A DNA stretch of 19,954 nt. Origin: a virus (Duplodnaviria > Heunggongvirae > Uroviricota > Caudoviricetes). Both the position numbers and the translations under genes were made by a program. The notes under the pieces are model-generated. The model was not told the origin of the DNA. It was given only the letters and a program-made list of their open reading frames with translations, and did no database searches. Shown one piece after another: positions 12,358 through 19,954 of this stretch; position 1 is the stretch's first letter; each line of letters starts with the position of its first letter. The stretch lies in the IMG/VR virus record IMGVR_UViG_2671180903_000004, positions 1 to 19,954 of that record. One strand, 5' to 3'.

Positions 12358-12717
12358 ATGCTCATAGATTTGGTTTTACCTTACCCGCCGACGGTGAACA
12401 CTTACTGGCGACGCCGTGGCAGCACATATTTTGTATCAAAAGCCGGGGAGCGTTATCGCCGGGCAGTGGTGCTTATTGTTCGCCAGCAGCGACTGAAATT
12501 AAGCCTGTCCGGACGGCTGGCAATAAAAATTATTGCAGAGCCACCGGATAAGCGTCGTCGTGACCTGGACAATATTCTGAAAGCACCGCTGGATGCGCTG
12601 ACGCATGCGGGAGTGTTAATGGACGATGAGCAGTTTGATGAAATCAATATTGTACGTGGTCAGCCAGTATCTGGTGGACGGCTGGGTGTGAAGATTTACA
12701 AAATTGAGAGTGAGTGA
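12358..12717 (+). CDS. rusA: Holliday-junction resolvase RusA
   Basis: 119 aa; motifs LPYPPTVNTYW and DKRRRDLDNILKAPLDALTHAGVLMDD match recalled RusA; AGAGGTGA SD upstream. Confidence 0.85.
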   Translation: MLIDLVLPYPPTVNTYWRRRGSTYFVSKAGERYRRAVVLIVRQQRLKLSLSGRLAIKIIAEPPDKRRRDLDNILKAPLDALTHAGVLMDDEQFDEINIVRGQPVSGGRLGVKIYKIESE

Positions 12718-12725
12718 GCGTAAAT

Positions 12726-13256
12726 ATGATATATCCGGAAATTACAGGCAAAAGCGGCGAACATTTACGCCTGAACACGCTGGAAGCAGTCTGGATCCAG
12801 GGGAAATTACGGATGTGGGGGCGGTGGTCGTATATCGGTGGGGGTAAATCCGGAAATATGTTTAACCGGTTACTGGTTTCGAAAAAGCTGACGAAAACAG
12901 CAGTTAATGAGGTTTTACGCAGCATGAAGAAATCCGGGCTGGAAAAACCGGAACTTGAGGCATTTTTTCGGGATATGACCAGAGGGAAGCAGAAGAGCTG
13001 GTTGTCACATTGTACAGACACAGAGGCGTTGATTATTGATCGCGTTATCAGTGAGGTGCTTGGGGAATATCCCGGGCTAATCAATATTCTCCGGCAAAGG
13101 TACGAAGGACGGGGAATGAGTAAGAGAAAAATGGCAGAATGTTTAAATCGTACTCACCCGGAATGGTGTTTCAGCACATGTGAGAAACGTATTGCAGGTT
13201 GGTTAGCCGTGGCTGAACACATGCTTTATGTACCTATGCACGATTCATTTCGATAA
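12726..13256 (+). CDS. Q: Late-gene antiterminator, Q-like (176 aa)
   Basis: Sits directly upstream of a promoter-like region and tR'-type terminator and after rusA, the canonical Q position; ATG 12726 preferred over the GTG at 12714 that overlaps the rusA stop. Sequence family not independently confirmed. Confidence 0.65.
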   Translation: MIYPEITGKSGEHLRLNTLEAVWIQGKLRMWGRWSYIGGGKSGNMFNRLLVSKKLTKTAVNEVLRSMKKSGLEKPELEAFFRDMTRGKQKSWLSHCTDTEALIIDRVISEVLGEYPGLINILRQRYEGRGMSKRKMAECLNRTHPEWCFSTCEKRIAGWLAVAEHMLYVPMHDSFR

Positions 13257-13351
13257 AAAAAGCTTGCTTTTTTACGCAGAAACAGCTTGAATTCCTGTAA
13301 GCTTCGCAAAGCTGTATCGCGAGGCGAAATGCAAGTTTTTTCGCACAAGGA
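13257..13351 (+). promoter_or_regulatory. Putative late promoter (PR'-like) and Q-utilisation region
   Basis: Intergenic region between Q and a strong intrinsic terminator; -35-like TTGAAT present. Exact -10 and start site not resolved by eye. Confidence 0.4.
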
Positions 13352-13375
13352 AGCCACCGGAAGGTGGTTTTTTTG
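13352..13375 (+). terminator. Rho-independent terminator (tR'-like)
   Basis: CCACC-GGAA-GGTGG stem-loop (13354-13367) followed by TTTTTTT (13368-13374). Confidence 0.7.
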
Positions 13376-13495
13376 TGTCCGTAATATACAGCAGCGCAAT
13401 AAATTCGCTGGTGGTTATTAATACCGTTCTTTCAGCTTGCTGGCTTTTTCGACAAGAGTTATTGGTGTGTCACGTTAACCGGAAAAGGAAAAGAC

Positions 13496-13693
13496 ATGCT
13501 AAAACAGCAGGATATGACAGAAACCGCCAGAGTGGTGTTTAATGAATTAAGCGTTACCGACCCGGCGACAGTCGGGGAGATTGCGCAGAATACTTACCTT
13601 TCACGCGAACGCTGCCAGTTAATACTGACCCAGCTGGTTATGGCGGGTCTGGCAGACTATCAGTTCGGTTGTTACAGACGCCTTCCGCAGTGA
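13496..13693 (+). CDS. Small winged-helix-like protein (65 aa), unknown function
   Basis: ATG 13496 with AAGGAAAAG SD; ATVGEIAQNTYLSRERCQLILTQLVMAGLADY looks like a wHTH recognition region; enclosed between two intrinsic terminators. Confidence 0.5.
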   Translation: MLKQQDMTETARVVFNELSVTDPATVGEIAQNTYLSRERCQLILTQLVMAGLADYQFGCYRRLPQ

Positions 13694-13704
13694 AGGCTTT
13701 TTTA
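13680..13704 (+). terminator. Rho-independent terminator overlapping the stop of the 65-aa ORF
   Basis: GCCTTC-cgcagt-GAAGGC (13680-13697) followed by TTTTTTT; the TGA stop lies in the loop/stem. Confidence 0.55.
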
Positions 13705-13843
13705 TTTGTGGTAAATGGGCGGCTGGTGGGTGTTAGGGGCACCCACCAGCCATCTGCTCATGCGTTGGGTTCACAAGCAAACCTCAGGCCCACTGCTTTG
13801 CGCAAAAGCAGAATGAGCCTATCAGAGACAGGCTTAATGATCC

Positions 13844-14893
13844 ATGCTTAATACTGTAAAAATATCCAGTTGTGAGTTAATCAACGCCGACTGCCTGGAA
13901 TTTATCCGGTCGTTACCCGAAAATTCTGTTGACCTGATAGTCACGGACCCGCCGTACTTTAAAGTGAAGCCTGAGGGCTGGGATAACCAGTGGAAGGGCG
14001 ACGATGATTACCTGAAGTGGCTGGACCAGTGTCTGGCGCAGTTCTGGCGGGTGCTGAAACCTGCCGGAAGTCTTTACCTGTTCTGTGGTCATCGCCTGGC
14101 ATCTGATATCGAAATCATGATGCGTGAACGCTTCAGTGTGCTGAACCATATTATCTGGGCGAAGCCTTCCGGACGCTGGAACGGGTGCAACAAGGAAAGC
14201 CTGCGGGCGTATTTCCCCGCCACAGAGCGCATTCTGTTCGCGGAACATTATCAGGGGCCGTATCGTCCGAAAGATGCCGGGTATGAGGCGAAGGGCAGGG
14301 CACTGAAACAGCATGTGATGGCCCCGCTGATTTCTTACTTTCGTGATGCATGCGCGGCCCTGGGGATAACGGCAAAACAGATTGCAGATGCCACAGGAAA
14401 GAAAAACATGGTGTCGCACTGGTTCAGTGCCAGTCAGTGGCAGTTGCCGAACGAAAGCGATTATCTGAAATTACAGGCACTGTTTGCTAGGGTGGCAGAA
14501 GAGAAGCATCAGCGGGGGGAACTGGAAAAGCCCCACCACCAGCTGGTGGATACGTATACTTCACTGAACCGACAGTATGCGGAGCTGCAGAGTGAATATA
14601 AACATCTGCGGCGGTATTTTGGTGTGACGGCGCAGGTGCCGTACACGGATGTGTGGACACATAAACCGGTGCAGTTCTATCCCGGGAAACATCCGTGCGA
14701 AAAACCGGCAGAAATGCTGCAGCAGATAATCAGCGCAAGTAGTCGTCCTGGTGATCTGGTTGCGGATTTTTTCATGGGGTCGGGTTCAACGGTAAAAGCG
14801 GCACTGGCGCTCGGGCGTCGTGCGATTGGCGTTGAACTGGAGACAGGACGTTTTGAGCAGACAGTCAGGGAAGTTCAGGATTTAATCGTTTGA
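13844..14893 (+). CDS. Orphan DNA methyltransferase, beta-class (motif IV before motif I), probably N6-adenine
   Basis: DPPY (VTDPPYF) near the N-terminus and FxGxG (FFMGSGST) near the C-terminus, with a long variable region between; no adjacent restriction endonuclease gene. Confidence 0.85.
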   Translation: MLNTVKISSCELINADCLEFIRSLPENSVDLIVTDPPYFKVKPEGWDNQWKGDDDYLKWLDQCLAQFWRVLKPAGSLYLFCGHRLASDIEIMMRERFSVLNHIIWAKPSGRWNGCNKESLRAYFPATERILFAEHYQGPYRPKDAGYEAKGRALKQHVMAPLISYFRDACAALGITAKQIADATGKKNMVSHWFSASQWQLPNESDYLKLQALFARVAEEKHQRGELEKPHHQLVDTYTSLNRQYAELQSEYKHLRRYFGVTAQVPYTDVWTHKPVQFYPGKHPCEKPAEMLQQIISASSRPGDLVADFFMGSGSTVKAALALGRRAIGVELETGRFEQTVREVQDLIV

Positions 14894-14942
14894 AACGGAT
14901 GAGATTGCAGAATTAATTACGCACCATTATTATTCTGCTCCC

Positions 14943-15018
14943 GGCCCTTTAGCTCAGTGGTGAGAGCGAGCGACTCATAATCGCCAGGTCGCTGGTTCAA
15001 ATCCAGCAAGGGCCACCA
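14943..15018 (+). tRNA. tRNA with CAT anticodon (Met or Ile2/lysidine type, ileZ-like)
   Basis: Hand-folded cloverleaf: acceptor GGCCCTT/AAGGGCC, D-arm GCTC...GAGC, anticodon loop CTCATAA, T-arm GCTGG-TTCAAAT-CCAGC, encoded CCA. Confidence 0.85.
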
Positions 15019-15025
15019 TCACATA

Positions 15026-15099
15026 CCGCCATTAGCTCATCAGGAAAGAGCGCCAGCCTTCGAAGCTGGTTGCGCGGAGTTCGGGTCCCCGAAGGCGGT
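15026..15099 (+). tRNA. tRNA-Arg(TCG)-like, possibly degenerate
   Basis: Anticodon arm CCAGC-CTTCGAA-GCTGG is clean, but hand-folding shows an A-A mismatch in the acceptor stem, an A-C mismatch in the T-stem, T-loop TTCGGGT, C at position 1 and no encoded CCA. Confidence 0.5.
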
Positions 15100-15115
15100 T
15101 CATTATCTGTATCCT

Positions 15116-15192
15116 GCGTTGTTAGCTCAGCCGGACAGAGCAATTGCCTTCTAAGCAATCGGTCACTGGTTCGAATCCAGTACAACGCGCCA
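15116..15192 (+). tRNA. tRNA-Arg (anticodon TCT)
   Basis: Acceptor GCGTTGT/ACAACGC, anticodon loop CTTCTAA, T-arm ACTGG-TTCGAAT-CCAGT, discriminator G, encoded CCA. Confidence 0.85.
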
Positions 15193-15206
15193 CACTTATT
15201 TTCCCT

Positions 15207-15232
15207 GGCTCGCTTTTGCGGGCCTTTTTTTT
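15207..15232 (+). terminator. Strong rho-independent terminator after the tRNA cluster
   Basis: GGCTCGC-tttt-GCGGGCC stem-loop (one G-U pair) followed by eight T residues (15225-15232). Confidence 0.7.
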
Positions 15233-15428
15233 AAATGTCTCACAATTCAGGCGGTTGACTGTTGTCTGGTTTGCGGGGAGTTTGTTAAAAGAAACTGGCA
15301 TGGTGAATCCCCCTGTGCGGAGGGGCAATCAGCGAGTAGGTATATGGGATAATCGCGGATTCAGGTGCTGGTACTGAATTCACCGGGAGGCACCCGGCAC
15401 CATGCAATGGCACATAGCGCCACTCTCC

Positions 15429-15456
15429 AGCCCCTCTCCGGAGGGGCTGTTTATAT
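15429..15456 (+). terminator. Terminator-like hairpin (perfect 8-bp stem AGCCCCTC/GAGGGGCT, 4-nt loop) followed by a T-rich tract
   Basis: Stem 15429-15436 / 15441-15448, then GTTTATATTGATTTT; lies between the structured region after the tRNAs and the stop of the reverse ORF. Confidence 0.45.
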
Positions 15457-15483
15457 TGATTTTGTCAGATGTGAGTAAACTCC

Positions 15484-15819
15484 TTATGGACTTTGTTGTT
15501 TTAGCCCATAAGGACATATTTGCAGAGTGCAACGGTTATTAAAGCATTCATTCAATACGTTATCTGTATTTGTAGGGCATTCCTGGCTGTTTTTGATTAA
15601 ATTCCAGAATGTTTTATTGAATGGTACTACGTTGTAAATGGTTACAGGTAGCACTTTGTTATTGAGCATGATGCCTGTGTGAGTCAGTGTAAATATACTT
15701 TCAGGAGGTAAGAAAGCATCCGATTGATACCAGATTATTAATTTTATTTTACTCCATATGACTGAAAAAGATATTCCGCATGATGGCTGGATAACTGTAT
15801 CAATCACAATCCACTTCAT
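15484..15819 (-). CDS. Hypothetical protein (111 aa), AT-rich reverse-oriented cargo at the stx-equivalent position
   Basis: ATG at 15819..15817 with AAGGAAA SD; gene and flanks are clearly AT-rich versus neighbours; minus-strand -35-like TTTACA with imperfect -10 candidates upstream (plus 15858-15886); no recognisable family. Confidence 0.35.
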
Positions 15820-16079
15820 TTGGTTTCCTTGTTTATGCATTGCTGGTGATGTTCTGAAAAGTATAAATGATATTTTTGAATGTAAACCATAGAGCAGAAT
15901 TATTTTTCTGATGTTGTTTATTGTTTATTTAAATGCAGGGTGGTTTATATCTCGTCTTGTAGTTTATCCATGCATATCTGCTTGATGATGAGGTTTTTAT
16001 TTAAGGTATGGTTTTGTGTTTTTTCTGTATTACATGTCAGGTATTTTAAAGAATCATTTTTCAGATGGTGGAAAGAACC

Positions 16080-17945
16080 ATGGCATTTAAACACTATGAT
16101 GTTGTCAGGGCGGCGTCGCCGTCAGATCTTGCGGAAAAGCTGACACATAAACTGAAAGAGGGCTGGCAGCCGTTTGGTAGTCCGGTGGCCATAACCCCTT
16201 ATACTCTGATGCAGGCGATTGCAGCAGAAGGTGCAGTAATCAGCGCCACCAGCGACCCGGAGTATTACTTTGTTGTGGTTCTGGCAGGGCAGTCAAACGG
16301 CATGTCGTATGGTGAAGGCCTTCCGCTGCCGGGGACATATGACCGTCCGGACCCGCGTATTAAGCAACTGGCGCGTCGCAGTACGGTGACACCGGGCGGT
16401 GCAGCATGCAAATATAACGACATCATTCCGGCGGACCATTGTCTGCATGATGTGCAGGACATGAGCCGTCTTAACCATCCGAAAGCGGACCTGTCAAAGG
16501 GGCAGTACGGAACCGTGGGGCAGGGGCTGCATATCGCCAAAAAACTGCTGCCGTTTATACCGGCGAATGCGGGCATTCTGCTGGTTCCGTGCTGTCGTGG
16601 TGGTTCAGCGTTCACCACCGGAGCTGATGGCACATACAGTGACGCGAGTGGTGCCTCGGAGAATTCAACCCGCTGGGGTGTGGACAAGCCGCTGTATAAG
16701 GACCTTATCGGTCGAACAAAAGCGGCACTGGAGAAGAACCCGAAAAATGTGCTGTTTGCCGTGGTGTGGATGCAGGGGGAATTTGATTTTGGCGGTACGC
16801 CGGCAAATCATGCCGCACAGTTTGGTGCGCTGGTTGATAAATTCCGTGCAGACCTGGCGGATATGGCAGGCCAGTGCGTCGGTGGCTCTGCTGGCGGTGT
16901 TCCCTGGATATGCGGGGACACGACGTATTTCTGGAAGCAGAAGAACGAATCCACGTACCAGACGGTGTACGGCAGCTATAAAAATAAAACGGAAAAGAAT
17001 ATCCATTTCGTACCGTTCATGACCGATGAGAACGGGGTGAATGTGCCGACGAACAAACCGGAAGAAGACCCGGACATTCCGGGTATCGGTTATTACGGTT
17101 CGAAATGGCGTGACAGCTCAGCCACCTGGACGTCACAGGACAGGGCGAGCCATTTCAGTTCATGGGCTCGCCGTGGGATTATTTCCGACCGTCTGGCAAC
17201 GGCGATTCTGAGCTGCGCGGGTAAGTCTTCTGCGTTTGTTAATGGTACTGCCGGGGTGGTTGTTCCAGACAGGCCGGTTACCACCTCAGAGTCTGTAATT
17301 TTTTACGATGCCAAAAAAGCTACAGACAATCAGCTGAAACCTTATGGCTGGGACGGTATGTATGGCAGACGCACACTGGTTGATGACAGCGGCAATAAAG
17401 CTCTGCGAATTGAGAAAAATAACAGCGCGAAATCCTGGTCAATGTACTGTGATATTGCTGCAGACAAGGCAAAACTTTTACTGGAAAAAGGCGGGGAAAT
17501 TGCTGTCCGGTTTAAAATCCCCGAAAACGTCAATCTTGAGACAACCAGAAACAAGTATGCCTTTGGTTTGTACTGGCGAATAGCGGAATGGCCGGGTGAG
17601 GGTGGTGAAGGCCATCTGAGTTCTTTCTTTGTCCAGACAGATAAAGCCAGTATTAATGTTGCATACCATCATACAGTTAATCAACAAAAAGAACTTGGCA
17701 CGTTTGGCGCATTCGACCATGACTGGCATACGCTTGCATTTAAATTTAAGGGCAGTAACAGCATTAATGTTACTCCGGTGCTTGATGGTGTGGATGGACA
17801 GGCGTTTGACCTGGTGAAATGGGCCAATACTGCTAATGGACTCAACAGGTTTGTCATTACGGATATTACAGGTAGTGCAGAAACCTACCCTGTACTTATT
17901 GATACGGTGGAAGTTAAAGCAAACAAAGCTGGAGCAGCCGCATAA
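16080..17945 (+). CDS. nanS: Prophage O-acetyl sialate esterase, NanS-p-like (N-terminal DUF1737-like region, SASA/SGNH esterase core, C-terminal lectin-like region)
   Basis: 621 aa from ATG 16080; motif VVLAGQSNGMSYGEG (esterase Ser motif); N-terminus MAFKHYDVV...EGWQPFGSPV recalled from the large ORF downstream of stx in Stx phages; position just upstream of the lysis cassette. Confidence 0.75.
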   Translation: MAFKHYDVVRAASPSDLAEKLTHKLKEGWQPFGSPVAITPYTLMQAIAAEGAVISATSDPEYYFVVVLAGQSNGMSYGEGLPLPGTYDRPDPRIKQLARRSTVTPGGAACKYNDIIPADHCLHDVQDMSRLNHPKADLSKGQYGTVGQGLHIAKKLLPFIPANAGILLVPCCRGGSAFTTGADGTYSDASGASENSTRWGVDKPLYKDLIGRTKAALEKNPKNVLFAVVWMQGEFDFGGTPANHAAQFGALVDKFRADLADMAGQCVGGSAGGVPWICGDTTYFWKQKNESTYQTVYGSYKNKTEKNIHFVPFMTDENGVNVPTNKPEEDPDIPGIGYYGSKWRDSSATWTSQDRASHFSSWARRGIISDRLATAILSCAGKSSAFVNGTAGVVVPDRPVTTSESVIFYDAKKATDNQLKPYGWDGMYGRRTLVDDSGNKALRIEKNNSAKSWSMYCDIAADKAKLLLEKGGEIAVRFKIPENVNLETTRNKYAFGLYWRIAEWPGEGGEGHLSSFFVQTDKASINVAYHHTVNQQKELGTFGAFDHDWHTLAFKFKGSNSINVTPVLDGVDGQAFDLVKWANTANGLNRFVITDITGSAETYPVLIDTVEVKANKAGAAA

Positions 17946-18084
17946 TTGCTAAAAAAAGCCGCCAGCGGCAGGAATGGAAGCTGGCGGAGGTAATCCCAAT
18001 GGAGAATGTAAAGAAAAGATGCTTTCGTACATTGGTTTTTTAAATGAAAACAATTCTCATTGTCAACCATAACGGTAAGAAATT

Positions 18085-18267
18085 ATGACATTTATTCATC
18101 AGGTGATGCTGTACTTCTGTACGGCGGTCTGTGTGCTGTATCTTCTTTCGGGTGGGTACAGGGCTGTGCGCGATTTCTGGTGCAGGCAGATTGATAAAAG
18201 GGCCGCTGAGAAAATCAGCGCCAGTCAGTCAGCCGGAAGCAAACCCGAAGAACCCGTTACTCCTTAA
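18085..18267 (+). CDS. Small membrane protein (60 aa), unknown function
   Basis: One hydrophobic segment (VMLYFCTAVCVLYLLSGG); weak RBS. Confidence 0.4.
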   Translation: MTFIHQVMLYFCTAVCVLYLLSGGYRAVRDFWCRQIDKRAAEKISASQSAGSKPEEPVTP

Positions 18268-18292
18268 CAACCCCTTTCAGCGAGAAAATCCC

Positions 18293-18538
18293 ATGTCAGA
18301 AATCACATCCCTGGTCACTGCAGAGGCAGTGAAGGAAGTCCTGCGCTCTGAAGAAGTCCGGAGCGCACTGAAACAGAAACTTCGCCAGAATCTTGAGTCG
18401 CGTCTTGATGCAGAAGTGGATGCCATTCTGGATGAGCTGCTGGGCGTAGCAGCGGTTCCTGAGCCGGAAGGTATCGCGGGTGACGGGAGTGCTTCAGATG
18501 GCGGTGAACCTACACCTGACAGCGACATGATGATGTAA
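18293..18538 (+). CDS. Small acidic protein (81 aa), unknown function
   Basis: Internal ATG 18293 with GAGAAAA upstream; predicted helical and acidic with a C-terminal D/E/G/S-rich tail. Confidence 0.45.
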
Positions 18539-18614
18539 GCATGCGCAAGGGACCATCGGTGTGTGCCGGTGGTCTTTATATTGTTGTGAGCTTCCGGATT
18601 GCGGGAGACGGGGT

Positions 18615-18830
18615 ATGTACCAGATGGAAAAAATCACAACAGGTGTGTCATACACCACGTCAGCGGTGGGAACGGGCTACTGGTTCCTGCAGTTGCTGGA
18701 CAGGGTTTCCCCGTCTCAGTGGGCGGCAATAGGCGTGCTGGGGAGTCTGTTGTTTGGGCTGCTGACATATCTGACTAACCTGTATTTCAAAATCAGAGAG
18801 GACCGTCGTAAGGCGGCGCGGGGAGAGTAA
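18615..18830 (+). CDS. S: Class II holin / pinholin, phage 21 S-like, with dual-start motif
   Basis: [71 protein letters not shown] closely matches recalled S21; two in-frame ATGs (18615, 18624) give the antiholin/holin pair; two TM segments. Confidence 0.85.
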
Positions 18831-18834
18831 AGCG

Positions 18835-19179
18835 ATGAAGAAAAAATACGAACTGGTTGTTAAAGGGATAAATAATTACCCGAATAAGATTACTGTTACT
18901 GTGGCACTGGAAATTGGTGGGTATCCGTCACTGTTGTTGCCAGATGTGGCGATTAGTCTTGACCGTACTGAAGATGCCACGCTGGAGTTTTACGAAGCTG
19001 AGGCGAAAAAGCAGGCGAAGCAGTTTTTCATGGATGTTGCTGCCGGGTTATGTGAAGGGGATGGTCCGTTGCCGGAAAAGCGCCCCGTAATTTTAGAGGC
19101 GCAGGATGTGTTGATAACCTACAGAGGAAAACTACCGGGAATAATTACTGGTTCTCTGAAGACTCCACCGCTGGCCTGA
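18835..19179 (+). CDS. Hypothetical protein (114 aa) inserted between holin and endolysin
   Basis: ATG 18835 with GGAGAG SD, 5 nt after the holin stop; no TM segment or signal peptide; no recognisable family. Confidence 0.55.
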   Translation: MKKKYELVVKGINNYPNKITVTVALEIGGYPSLLLPDVAISLDRTEDATLEFYEAEAKKQAKQFFMDVAAGLCEGDGPLPEKRPVILEAQDVLITYRGKLPGIITGSLKTPPLA

Positions 19180-19229
19180 AGACTTAACATATCCAGGGAT
19201 TTGAAATCGATAAACCCTGATAAATATCC

Positions 19230-19763
19230 ATGAACACCAAAATCAGATACGGCCTGTCGGCTGCCGTTCTGGCGCTGATTGCCGCAGGTGCGCCTGCGCC
19301 TGAAATCCTCGACCAGTTTCTGGATGAAAAGGAAGGTAACCACACCACGGCATACCGTGATGGCGCGGGTATCTGGACCATCTGCCGCGGTGCCATCCTG
19401 GTGGATGGTAAACCTGTCGTCCCGGGCATGAAGTTGTCGAAGGAAAAATGCGACCAGGTTAACGCCATTGAACGTGATAAGGCGCTGGAGTGGGTGGAGC
19501 GCAATATTAAAGTACCGCTGACCGAACCCCAGAAAGCGGGGATCGCGTCATTCTGTCCGTACAACATTGGTCCCGGTAAGTGTTTCCCGTCGACGTTTTA
19601 TAAACGAATTAATGCAGGTGATCGAAAAGGTGCCTGCGAAGCGATTCGCTGGTGGATTAAGGACGGTGGCAGAGACTGCCGTATTCGCTCAAACAACTGT
19701 TACGGTCAGGTATCCCGTCGCGACCAGGAGAGTGCGCTGGCGTGCTGGGGAATTGACAGATAA
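19230..19763 (+). CDS. R: SAR endolysin (phage lysozyme, T4-lysozyme fold, R21-like)
   Basis: N-terminal signal-anchor-release segment LSAAVLALIAAGAPAP followed by the catalytic E...D...T motif (EGNHTTAYRDGAGIWTICRG); 177 aa. Confidence 0.9.
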   Translation: MNTKIRYGLSAAVLALIAAGAPAPEILDQFLDEKEGNHTTAYRDGAGIWTICRGAILVDGKPVVPGMKLSKEKCDQVNAIERDKALEWVERNIKVPLTEPQKAGIASFCPYNIGPGKCFPSTFYKRINAGDRKGACEAIRWWIKDGGRDCRIRSNNCYGQVSRRDQESALACWGIDR

Positions 19764-19857
19764 GCAGAATATTTTGCTGAAAAATAAGGCGTGGCCACGC
19801 GGGCGGATAACACGAAATCCTGCGAACTGGCGAAACGTAAGTGAATAAAAGTAAAAA

Positions 19858-19892
19858 CCCCGTTTGTTGGCACCAAGCGGGGTTTTGTGTTT
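19858..19892 (+). terminator. Terminator-like hairpin downstream of the endolysin
   Basis: CCCCG...CGGGG stem (19858-19862 / 19878-19882) with a 15-nt loop, followed by TTTTGTGTTT. Confidence 0.4.
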
Positions 19893-19919
19893 CTGACCTT
19901 GAGTAAGGCAAGGGAGAAC

Positions 19920-19954
19920 ATGGCGAAGTATAAACGAATTCTGTTGAGGTTGAC
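19920..19954 (+). CDS. 5' end of an unidentified gene (MAKYKRILLRL...), continues past the window end
   Basis: ATG 19920 with AAGGGAGAA SD; only 11 codons visible, so product is unknown. Confidence 0.35.
   Translation, partial: MAKYKRILLRL

Follow-up and report, generated by a model that had tools for sequence, protein, structure and literature searches.

Organization of the late region

What does a lambdoid prophage carry between its late tRNA cluster and its esterase gene, in the zone where Stx phages have stxAB, when no toxin gene is present? The question is raised by the stretch of DNA analysed here in its whole length (19,954 nt of the IMG/VR record IMGVR_UViG_2671180903_000004, hereafter the window), for which a first-pass annotation had described, between a terminator and the esterase start, about 850 bp of AT-rich cargo with one reverse-oriented ORF, located exactly at the stxAB position.

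The window covers the part of a lambdoid prophage that is devoted to late regulation and lysis. An antiterminator-like gene (DUF1133/Phage_antitermQ, nt 12714-13256) is followed by a DNA methylase (nt 13844-14893) and by three tRNAs, tRNA-CAT, Arg-TCG and Arg-TCT (nt 14943-15192). The tRNA cluster is closed on the plus strand by an intrinsic terminator (nt 15207-15232), recognized by the terminator scan as a stem (nt 15207-15224) plus a T run, and homologous to the terminator annotated upstream of the stx genes of phage 933W. At the opposite end of the interval, a single plus-strand gene (nt 16080-17945) codes for a NanS-p-like SASA carbohydrate esterase of 621 aa, having the Pfam domains DUF1737, SASA and DUF6645, a match with phrog_143 over its full length and a homologous start annotated by RefSeq; a class II holin, a YdfR-family gene and a lysozyme are encoded at its 3' side. 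The tRNA cluster, its terminator and the esterase start were all found as the first-pass annotation had reported them. Alignment of the whole window with complete E. coli genomes gave at best 77% coverage and 91% identity: the prophage is a mosaic, and a counterpart matching it in full was absent from the complete E. coli genomes aligned.

The interval is heterogeneous in base composition. GC content is 33.0% for nt 15459-16079 (34.8% in the reverse coding sequence and 30.4% in the intergenic region) and 53.5% for the first 226 bp (nt 15233-15458), versus 48.8% for the whole window. The AT-richness attributed to the entire 850 bp is thus a property of the right part of the interval and not of the left one, which contains an sRNA gene of the STnc100 family (see below). 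Two plus-strand ORFs (nt 15758-15892 and nt 15940-16143), both without any Pfam match, were treated as spurious.

Identification of the reverse ORF as iraL

The reverse ORF (nt 15484-15819, minus strand, stop codon included) is intact and codes for 111 aa, as first annotated. The protein is identical at 111/111 amino acids to IraL of E. coli CFT073 (WP_000871291.1, C_RS06710), and the two coding sequences share 335/336 nt, the sole difference being synonymous. The gene therefore belongs to the iraL type, whose members are 95% or more identical to CFT073 iraL along the whole CDS (PMC4045071). IraL (formerly YcgW, c1429; Hryckowian et al. 2014, PMC4045071) is encoded in the prophage of the potB island of the uropathogenic strain CFT073; it is a paralogue of IraM, about 59% identical, and has been experimentally characterised as an RssB anti-adaptor stabilising RpoS in log phase (PMC4045071). 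Judging from this identity, what had been regarded as unknown cargo is iraL, a prophage gene named and characterised in 2014.

In agreement with this assignment, the match with the NCBIfam model NF007393 (IraM) scored 162 bits (cutoff 121, E = 4.7e-48), residues 1-110 of the protein covering positions 1-113 of the 114 of the model. RefSeq labels the protein "anti-adapter protein IraM", and in four phage records the gene is annotated as "anti-adapter protein". When searched by phmmer against the IraM chain of the PDB entry 8TWD (chain A), residues 1-78 aligned without gaps (E = 9.1e-32), pointing, by sequence alone, to homology with the solved IraM core, a PmrD-like beta-barrel formed by residues 1-78. 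Since no model in the Pfam copy used matched the 111-aa protein, its assignment to the family is based on NCBIfam, PDB and pairwise identity.

Lack of conservation, one of the adverse outcomes considered in the first-pass annotation, was not what we observed. The comparison of iraL with iraM gave a dN/dS of 0.17 (dN 0.25, dS 1.5), and on this estimate iraL is under purifying selection. By megablast, the interval is covered for at least 80% in 1,430 of 5,426 complete E. coli genomes; iraL itself, with an identity of 95% or above, was found in about 1,415, or roughly a quarter of the 5,426. Searching the same genomes by blastn with the coding sequence separated this iraL type from an iraM type (about 71% identity, 3,330 records), with few intermediates.

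Transcription and translation start sites

The published 5'-RACE sequence of the CFT073 iraL mRNA matches the window at 31/32 bases, thus placing the putative transcription start at nt 15852 of the minus strand; the 5' leader would then measure 33 nt (nt 15820-15852). Reading upstream of this start, a putative promoter (nt 15860-15886, minus strand) can be assigned, consisting of a -10 hexamer TATACT (nt 15860-15865) and a -35-like hexamer TTTACA (nt 15881-15886) separated by a 15 nt spacer; by this assignment of the hexamers, the iraL promoter would be of sigma-70 type. The TATACT hexamer is identical in 4/4 iraL loci, while the -35-like hexamer shows one change in phage 640R1. The 250 bp upstream of iraL are approximately 98-99% identical to those of CFT073, DLI.5a and phage 640R1, and the flanks of iraL have no homology with the flanks of K-12 iraM. 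An iraL-type promoter and leader are thus present, setting the gene apart from iraM. The iraL promoter, with its spacer of only 15 nt, escaped the generic promoter scan, which requires 16-18 nt. Minus-strand matches of the promoter scan at nt 15927-15899 and 15768-15741 were set aside, as they do not fit the mapped start.

An ORF of 118 aa, beginning at nt 15840, was also called. Its additional ATG arises from a G-to-T change (nt 15839) that is specific to the window, represents the single mismatch of the leader and is not found in the three other iraL loci. Although the ORF call and this ATG, unique to the window among the four loci, speak for a protein extended at its N-terminus, we consider such a product very unlikely. 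Only 12 nt separate the ATG at nt 15840 from the mapped transcription start and no Shine-Dalgarno (SD) sequence precedes it, and the 111-aa product is therefore taken as the real one; instead, the conserved AAGGA, with its GG at -9/-8, serves the ATG at nt 15819, in line with the SD that the first-pass annotation had assigned to the ORF. RefSeq annotates the 111-aa form as well, and the same start is used in the original description of IraL (PMC4045071). At position -1, moreover, the window has an A where CFT073 has a G, and other changes are located further upstream; these, like the change at nt 15839, could alter iraL expression.

STnc100 and the hairpin at the 3' side of iraL

The left part of the interval, which is not AT-rich, was assigned by cmscan to the STnc100 family of prophage sRNAs (Rfam RF02076; nt 15269-15458, plus strand), with a score of 132.4 bits (gathering score 47), E = 6e-30 and a match extending over model positions 1-206 of 206. 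The gene runs in the direction of the late genes and converges on iraL. Its predicted minimum free energy is -74.6 kcal/mol (z = -2.3), and the qPCR primers published for STnc_100 (PMC12370729) have exact matches at nt 15299-15318 and 15372-15391. This sRNA, already known from prophages, is related to PasD and frequently lies close to esterase genes (bioRxiv 10.64898/2026.05.13.724894). The same placement was observed in 933W, 75/02, 1717, CFT073 and phi296. For the K-12 iraM stretch, on the other hand, Rfam at gathering threshold returned neither STnc100 nor any other family. A partial pseudo-ORF annotated by RefSeq in antisense inside STnc100 is probably spurious.

The first-pass annotation had drawn attention to a hairpin at the 3' side of the reverse ORF. 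This hairpin does exist (nt 15428-15449), with 9 pairs, 7 of them G-C, followed on the plus strand by TTTATATT, and was found both by the terminator scan and by folding. It coincides with the last helix of the STnc100 fold and is the intrinsic terminator of STnc100. The element thus belongs to the sRNA and not to the reverse ORF. As no T run follows the stem on the minus strand, it does not represent a canonical terminator for iraL, and no canonical iraL terminator was found on that strand.

Insertion point of stxAB

The position of the toxin genes was obtained by aligning the window with Stx2 and stx-negative phages, as the first-pass annotation had proposed. Nucleotides 14801-15233 of the window correspond to positions 1479-1912 of the 933W locus, ending 50 bp before stxA2, and nt 15236-15406 correspond to positions 3245-3426, starting 42 bp after stxB2; stxA2 and stxB2 (positions 1963-3203 of the 933W locus) lie between the two aligned blocks. 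The junction is the same in phage Lyz12581Vzw, whereas the stx-negative phage phi296 aligns with the window across it without interruption. The alignments with 933W and Lyz12581Vzw thus place the stx insertion point at nt 15233/15236, upstream of STnc100. In this prophage the stx slot (nt 15233-15236) is empty: neither stxA nor stxB was found between the tRNA terminator and the esterase, and the interval matches the Stx2 phages only outside stx, in accordance with the previously noted absence of a toxin A/B pair before the esterase. The same order was seen in IMG/VR, where stxB lies upstream of STnc100 in 23/23 loci having both.

Consequently, the proposed occupation of the exact stxAB position was not borne out. 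The cassette containing iraL spans nt 15449-16078, downstream of STnc100, while the stxAB junctions are at nt 15233/15236, and iraL is not a moron of the stxAB position. The cargo zone of Stx phages is made up of two sub-slots with STnc100 between them. Like iraL, the stxAB moron is found in the cargo zone of the late region, bounded by the tRNA cluster on one side and by the nanS-p-like esterase on the other; it is, in contrast, co-oriented with late transcription and located upstream of STnc100, whereas iraL is reversed and lies downstream of it.

Comparison with the CFT073 and K-12 loci

The prophage of the CFT073 potB island, which encodes the identical protein under the same promoter, has an architecture like that of the window, with an antiterminator, three tRNAs, STnc100, a reverse iraL, a DUF1737/esterase gene, a class II holin, YdfR and a lysozyme. 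The two loci differ in several respects. In CFT073, STnc100 is separated from the tRNAs by an additional insert of 642 bp, which includes a DUF3927 ORF; an IS200 follows the antiterminator gene, and the esterase is truncated to a DUF1737 remnant. The window carries instead the full-length esterase of 621 aa, the DNA methylase between antiterminator and tRNAs, and the leader SNP creating an ATG.

The relationship with K-12 is more distant. K-12 IraM (b1160) is the anti-adaptor of Mg2+ starvation, whose structure with RssB has been solved (PDB 8TWD, PMC10844676). IraL and K-12 IraM are homologous over their full length, with 66/107 identical residues (62%) and five shared cysteine positions, and IraL has four extra residues at the C-terminus. 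Both have RssB as target and RpoS stabilisation as outcome. Only the coding sequence of the K-12 iraM locus is homologous to the window (nt 15500-15822), flanks and promoter being unrelated; moreover, IraM adjoins e14, whereas iraL lies in a late-region slot. The two proteins also differ in their mode of binding, as IraM contacts both RssB domains while IraL is reported to bind the N-terminal domain only and to act in log phase (PMC4045071).

Proposed function of IraL and alternative explanations

We consider it very probable that the interval consists of two known, convergent prophage accessory genes, STnc100 and an iraL provided with its own promoter, and that the IraL protein stabilises RpoS via RssB. 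RssB binding, a longer RpoS half-life and the transcription start were established for the identical protein, in CFT073 and Shigella sonnei (PMC4045071); deletion of iraL lowered log-phase RpoS and reduced its half-life from about 5 to about 2.5 min (PMC4045071). From the identity of the protein, RssB binding and RpoS stabilisation can be expected in the host of the window too. According to the proposed mechanism, a lysogen would produce IraL from the sigma-70 promoter, independently of the phage late operon. The protein would bind the N-terminal receiver domain of the adaptor RssB, occupying its 4-5-5 face, and RssB bound in this way would be blocked from delivering the stress sigma factor sigma-S (RpoS) to the ClpXP protease. 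RpoS would thus be stabilised in exponentially growing cells, and the general stress regulon would be raised. After induction, the Q-antiterminated late transcription, antisense across the cassette, would be expected to interfere with iraL.

The residues of IraM that contact RssB, grouped in three clusters according to the IraM-RssB structure (PMC10844676), were compared with those of IraL. Cluster I, contacting the receiver domain, is conserved at 5/5 positions (I4, I6, W22, K26 and I42). Conservation drops to 3/5 in cluster II, which contacts the C-terminal domain (T13S and L75I), and to 2/4 in cluster III, which contacts the linker (H63N and I64V, with P66 kept). [quoted passage not shown]

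Location in a prophage cargo region, orientation against late transcription and an own promoter are all common among defence morons, and these features, all present here, could suggest a moron for anti-phage defence or for superinfection exclusion. We regard this as highly improbable: no defence family of PADLOC-DB matched the 111-aa protein at E <= 1 (0 families), its PHROG match, phrog_4407, is a family without assigned function, and the identical protein has an experimentally shown cellular target, RssB (PMC4045071). Of the earlier proposal of an undescribed defence, exclusion or host-interaction factor, the host-interaction role thus stands, while the gene is not undescribed, being iraL, and defence or exclusion found no support in PADLOC. 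There is next to no probability that the AT-rich segment is instead a decayed remnant of a disrupted stx locus or of an IS element, with a non-functional ORF, as the first-pass annotation had contemplated. Such an origin might be imagined from the strongly deviant GC content of 33% and from the RefSeq partial pseudo-ORF that adjoins the segment. The latter, however, is in antisense inside STnc100, outside the cassette, and no IS is annotated under the match in homologous records. The ORF is intact, and its identity with the functional CFT073 IraL already refutes a decayed gene; promoter and leader are conserved, dN/dS is 0.17, and the interval aligns to Stx2 phages only outside the stx genes.

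A different question is whom IraL serves. It might chiefly benefit the prophage, if the rise in RpoS tuned lysogen stability or induction and antisense late transcription switched iraL off at lysis. The conserved geometry, with a minus-strand Ira-family gene inside the late transcription unit, would agree with this possibility, as would the reverse anti-sRNAs rewiring host regulation that are otherwise held by the slot (PMC4104026). We nevertheless consider it unlikely, since it is pure inference and the phenotypes that have been published are limited to the levels of RpoS in the host. The reading that we prefer, i.e., an anti-adaptor acting on host RssB, also accommodates the previous description of the ORF, supported by our analysis, as a self-contained and oppositely oriented moron, of foreign composition and with a promoter of its own, lying in the cargo zone of the late region.

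A slot downstream of STnc100

The boundaries of the iraL cassette were defined by comparison with IMG/VR loci and phages. One IMG/VR locus, L011, shares with the window nt 13397-15448 (94%) and nt 16079-19954 (99%), having an unrelated, GC-rich spacer of 231 bp in place of nt 15449-16078. Together with two further loci, L024 and L026, it shares nt 13397/13885-15448 of the window at 94-96% identity; in L024 and L026, nt 16079-17452 are shared at 99.8-99.9%, and a 232-bp gap separates the aligned flanks. The flanks of these three loci indicate that the cassette begins immediately behind the stem of the STnc100 terminator and ends with the last base preceding the esterase ATG. A right boundary at the esterase start codon was also found in 933W, Lyz12581Vzw and phi296, the esterase being the conserved right flank of the slot. 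The exchangeable moron delimited in this way (nt 15449-16078, 630 bp, approximately 33% GC) comprises the iraL CDS with its leader and promoter and an AT-rich upstream region.

A census of the slot was carried out on the 75 IMG/VR loci with enough upstream sequence. The slot genes detected, 21 anti-sRNAs and 3 of the Ira family, are all on the minus strand and upstream of the esterase, and in all 23 loci where STnc100 was also detected they lie downstream of it. A minus-strand Ira-family gene between STnc100 and the esterase is present in the window, CFT073, 640R1, 1717 and three IMG/VR loci. Similarly, AsxR of 933W and AgvB of Shigella phage 75/02 Stx are encoded on the minus strand, downstream of STnc100 and directly before the esterase, an arrangement described as "convergent sRNA" by Tree et al. 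2014 (PMC4104026). These two resemble iraL in slot, strand and convergence on STnc100, and they too antagonise a host regulator (FnrS or GcvB); they are, however, Hfq-binding RNAs of 51-60 nt (PMC4104026), belonging to a family characterized by a conserved 3' region and a terminator, whereas the slot of the window encodes a protein, and their slot measures approximately 205-265 bp, versus approximately 620 bp here. Neither AsxR (RF02703) nor AgvB (RF02702) gave a match at E <= 1 in nt 13000-18500 of the window. The junction of the toxin genes is empty and the downstream slot holds iraL; this gene is one allele of a reverse-oriented slot, located downstream of STnc100, that otherwise holds anti-sRNAs.

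A broader generalization can be advanced only tentatively, and we hold it to be rather doubtful at present: the segment from the STnc100 terminator to the esterase ATG would be a second slot with fixed boundaries, whose occupant is always reversed, the identified ones antagonising a host global regulator, and Q read-through would silence the occupant upon induction, given the location of the slot within the late transcription unit. If this were true, RpoS stabilisation or sRNA sponging would be tied to the lysogenic state, and the paralogue found in Stx2c phages (see below) would link the carriage of a toxin phage to RpoS control in O157. As both iraL and STnc100 were already known, the finding is real but ordinary. 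The useful results are the corrections, namely the two sub-slots, the empty stx slot and iraL as an allele of the downstream slot, and the remaining novelty, given by the two-slot anatomy and the Stx2c-phage paralogue, is incremental.

The paralogue is encoded by the Stx2c-converting phage 1717, whose IraM-like gp43 (107 aa) has the slot and the reverse orientation of iraL, is 75% identical to IraL and represents a distinct third sequence type. The gene order in phage 1717 is Q, three tRNAs, stx2cA, stx2cB, STnc100, the reverse IraM-like gene and the esterase, showing that toxin and anti-adaptor genes coexist in adjacent slots. A gp43-type gene was found in 41 records of Stx2c/Stx2a phages, phage 2851 included, and a literature search for IraM and Stx2c phage retrieved no papers. 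As a modest lead, the stress resistance that depends on RpoS could, in O157 lysogens, be influenced by this third IraL/IraM paralogue, encoded next to the toxin genes.

The occupants of the second slot observed so far are AsxR (versus FnrS), AgvB (versus GcvB), IraL, the third IraL/IraM paralogue and the unnamed module of 231 bp. This last, for which no Rfam family match was obtained in L011, is found in close relatives of the window that are devoid of iraL, and in L011 it has a minus-strand intrinsic terminator of its own.

An STnc100 gene in the interval

The interval between the tRNA-cluster terminator and the esterase start (window 15233–16079) was found to contain, on the + strand, a full-length gene for the prophage sRNA STnc100 with its own terminator (window 15269–15458), located in the opening quarter of the interval, where the GC content is normal. 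This gene had been missed in the first-pass annotation. In homologous genomes, RefSeq reports a partial pseudo "hypothetical protein" at window ~15285–15413 (-), lying antisense within STnc100, which is probably an annotation artefact. In some phages STnc100 is repeated in tandem, with at least two copies upstream of the slot that separates it from the esterase, as in phage vB_EcoS-640R1 (L002, 3062–3255 and 3531–3719), and several partial copies were detected inside 3 kb in both L046 and L065.

Other occupants of the slot and of the stx-equivalent point

A third paralogue of the RssB anti-adaptor IraL and of its K-12 homologue IraM was identified in Stx2c and Stx2a converting phages (41 phage records). 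In Stx2c phage 1717 (L010) it is located at 4501–4824. The protein, of 107 aa, shares 75% identity with IraL and shows a similar divergence from IraM. The gene, whose annotation is often missing, is reverse-oriented, is flanked by STnc100 on one side and by the esterase on the other, and immediately adjoins stx2. A literature search for IraM together with Stx2c phages retrieved no paper linking the two.

In close relatives of the window prophage (L011, L024, L025 and L026), the iraL cassette is replaced by a GC-rich module of 231 bp, located at 3769–3999 in the IMG/VR relative L011, where a strong intrinsic terminator is present on the minus strand (3807 to 3786). No Rfam family was matched by the L011 module, which may represent an unnamed, reverse-oriented sRNA using the same slot as the iraL cassette.

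In the CFT073 prophage (L004), an insert of 642 bp (17567–18208, corresponding to window 15204/15228) carrying a small DUF3927 ORF lies between the tRNAs and STnc100, adjoining the stx-equivalent point, thus indicating that non-toxin cargo is also accepted at the stx slot.

IraL variation and the upstream region

An IraL 100% identical to that of the window is encoded by Escherichia albertii NBRC 107761 (L091, 3001–3333). E. coli ECGI0523 (L096, 3001–3318), one of the E. coli genomes matched in the species-representative set, encodes a relative whose identity is only 32%. The iraL leader of the window has a G-to-T change (window 15839–15840) that CFT073, DLI.5a and phage 640R1 lack; it gives rise to an upstream ATG in frame with iraL and to the call of a 118-aa ORF. 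This change may affect iraL translation; use of the upstream ATG as start codon is unlikely.

Window 13496–13697, located after the antiterminator-like gene and before the methylase, comprises an ORF of 65 aa, whose TrmB-like HTH match is weak (E = 0.004, under the Pfam cutoff), and downstream of it a + strand terminator (13680–13697). This stretch may be the region described as "late terminator" in the first-pass annotation.
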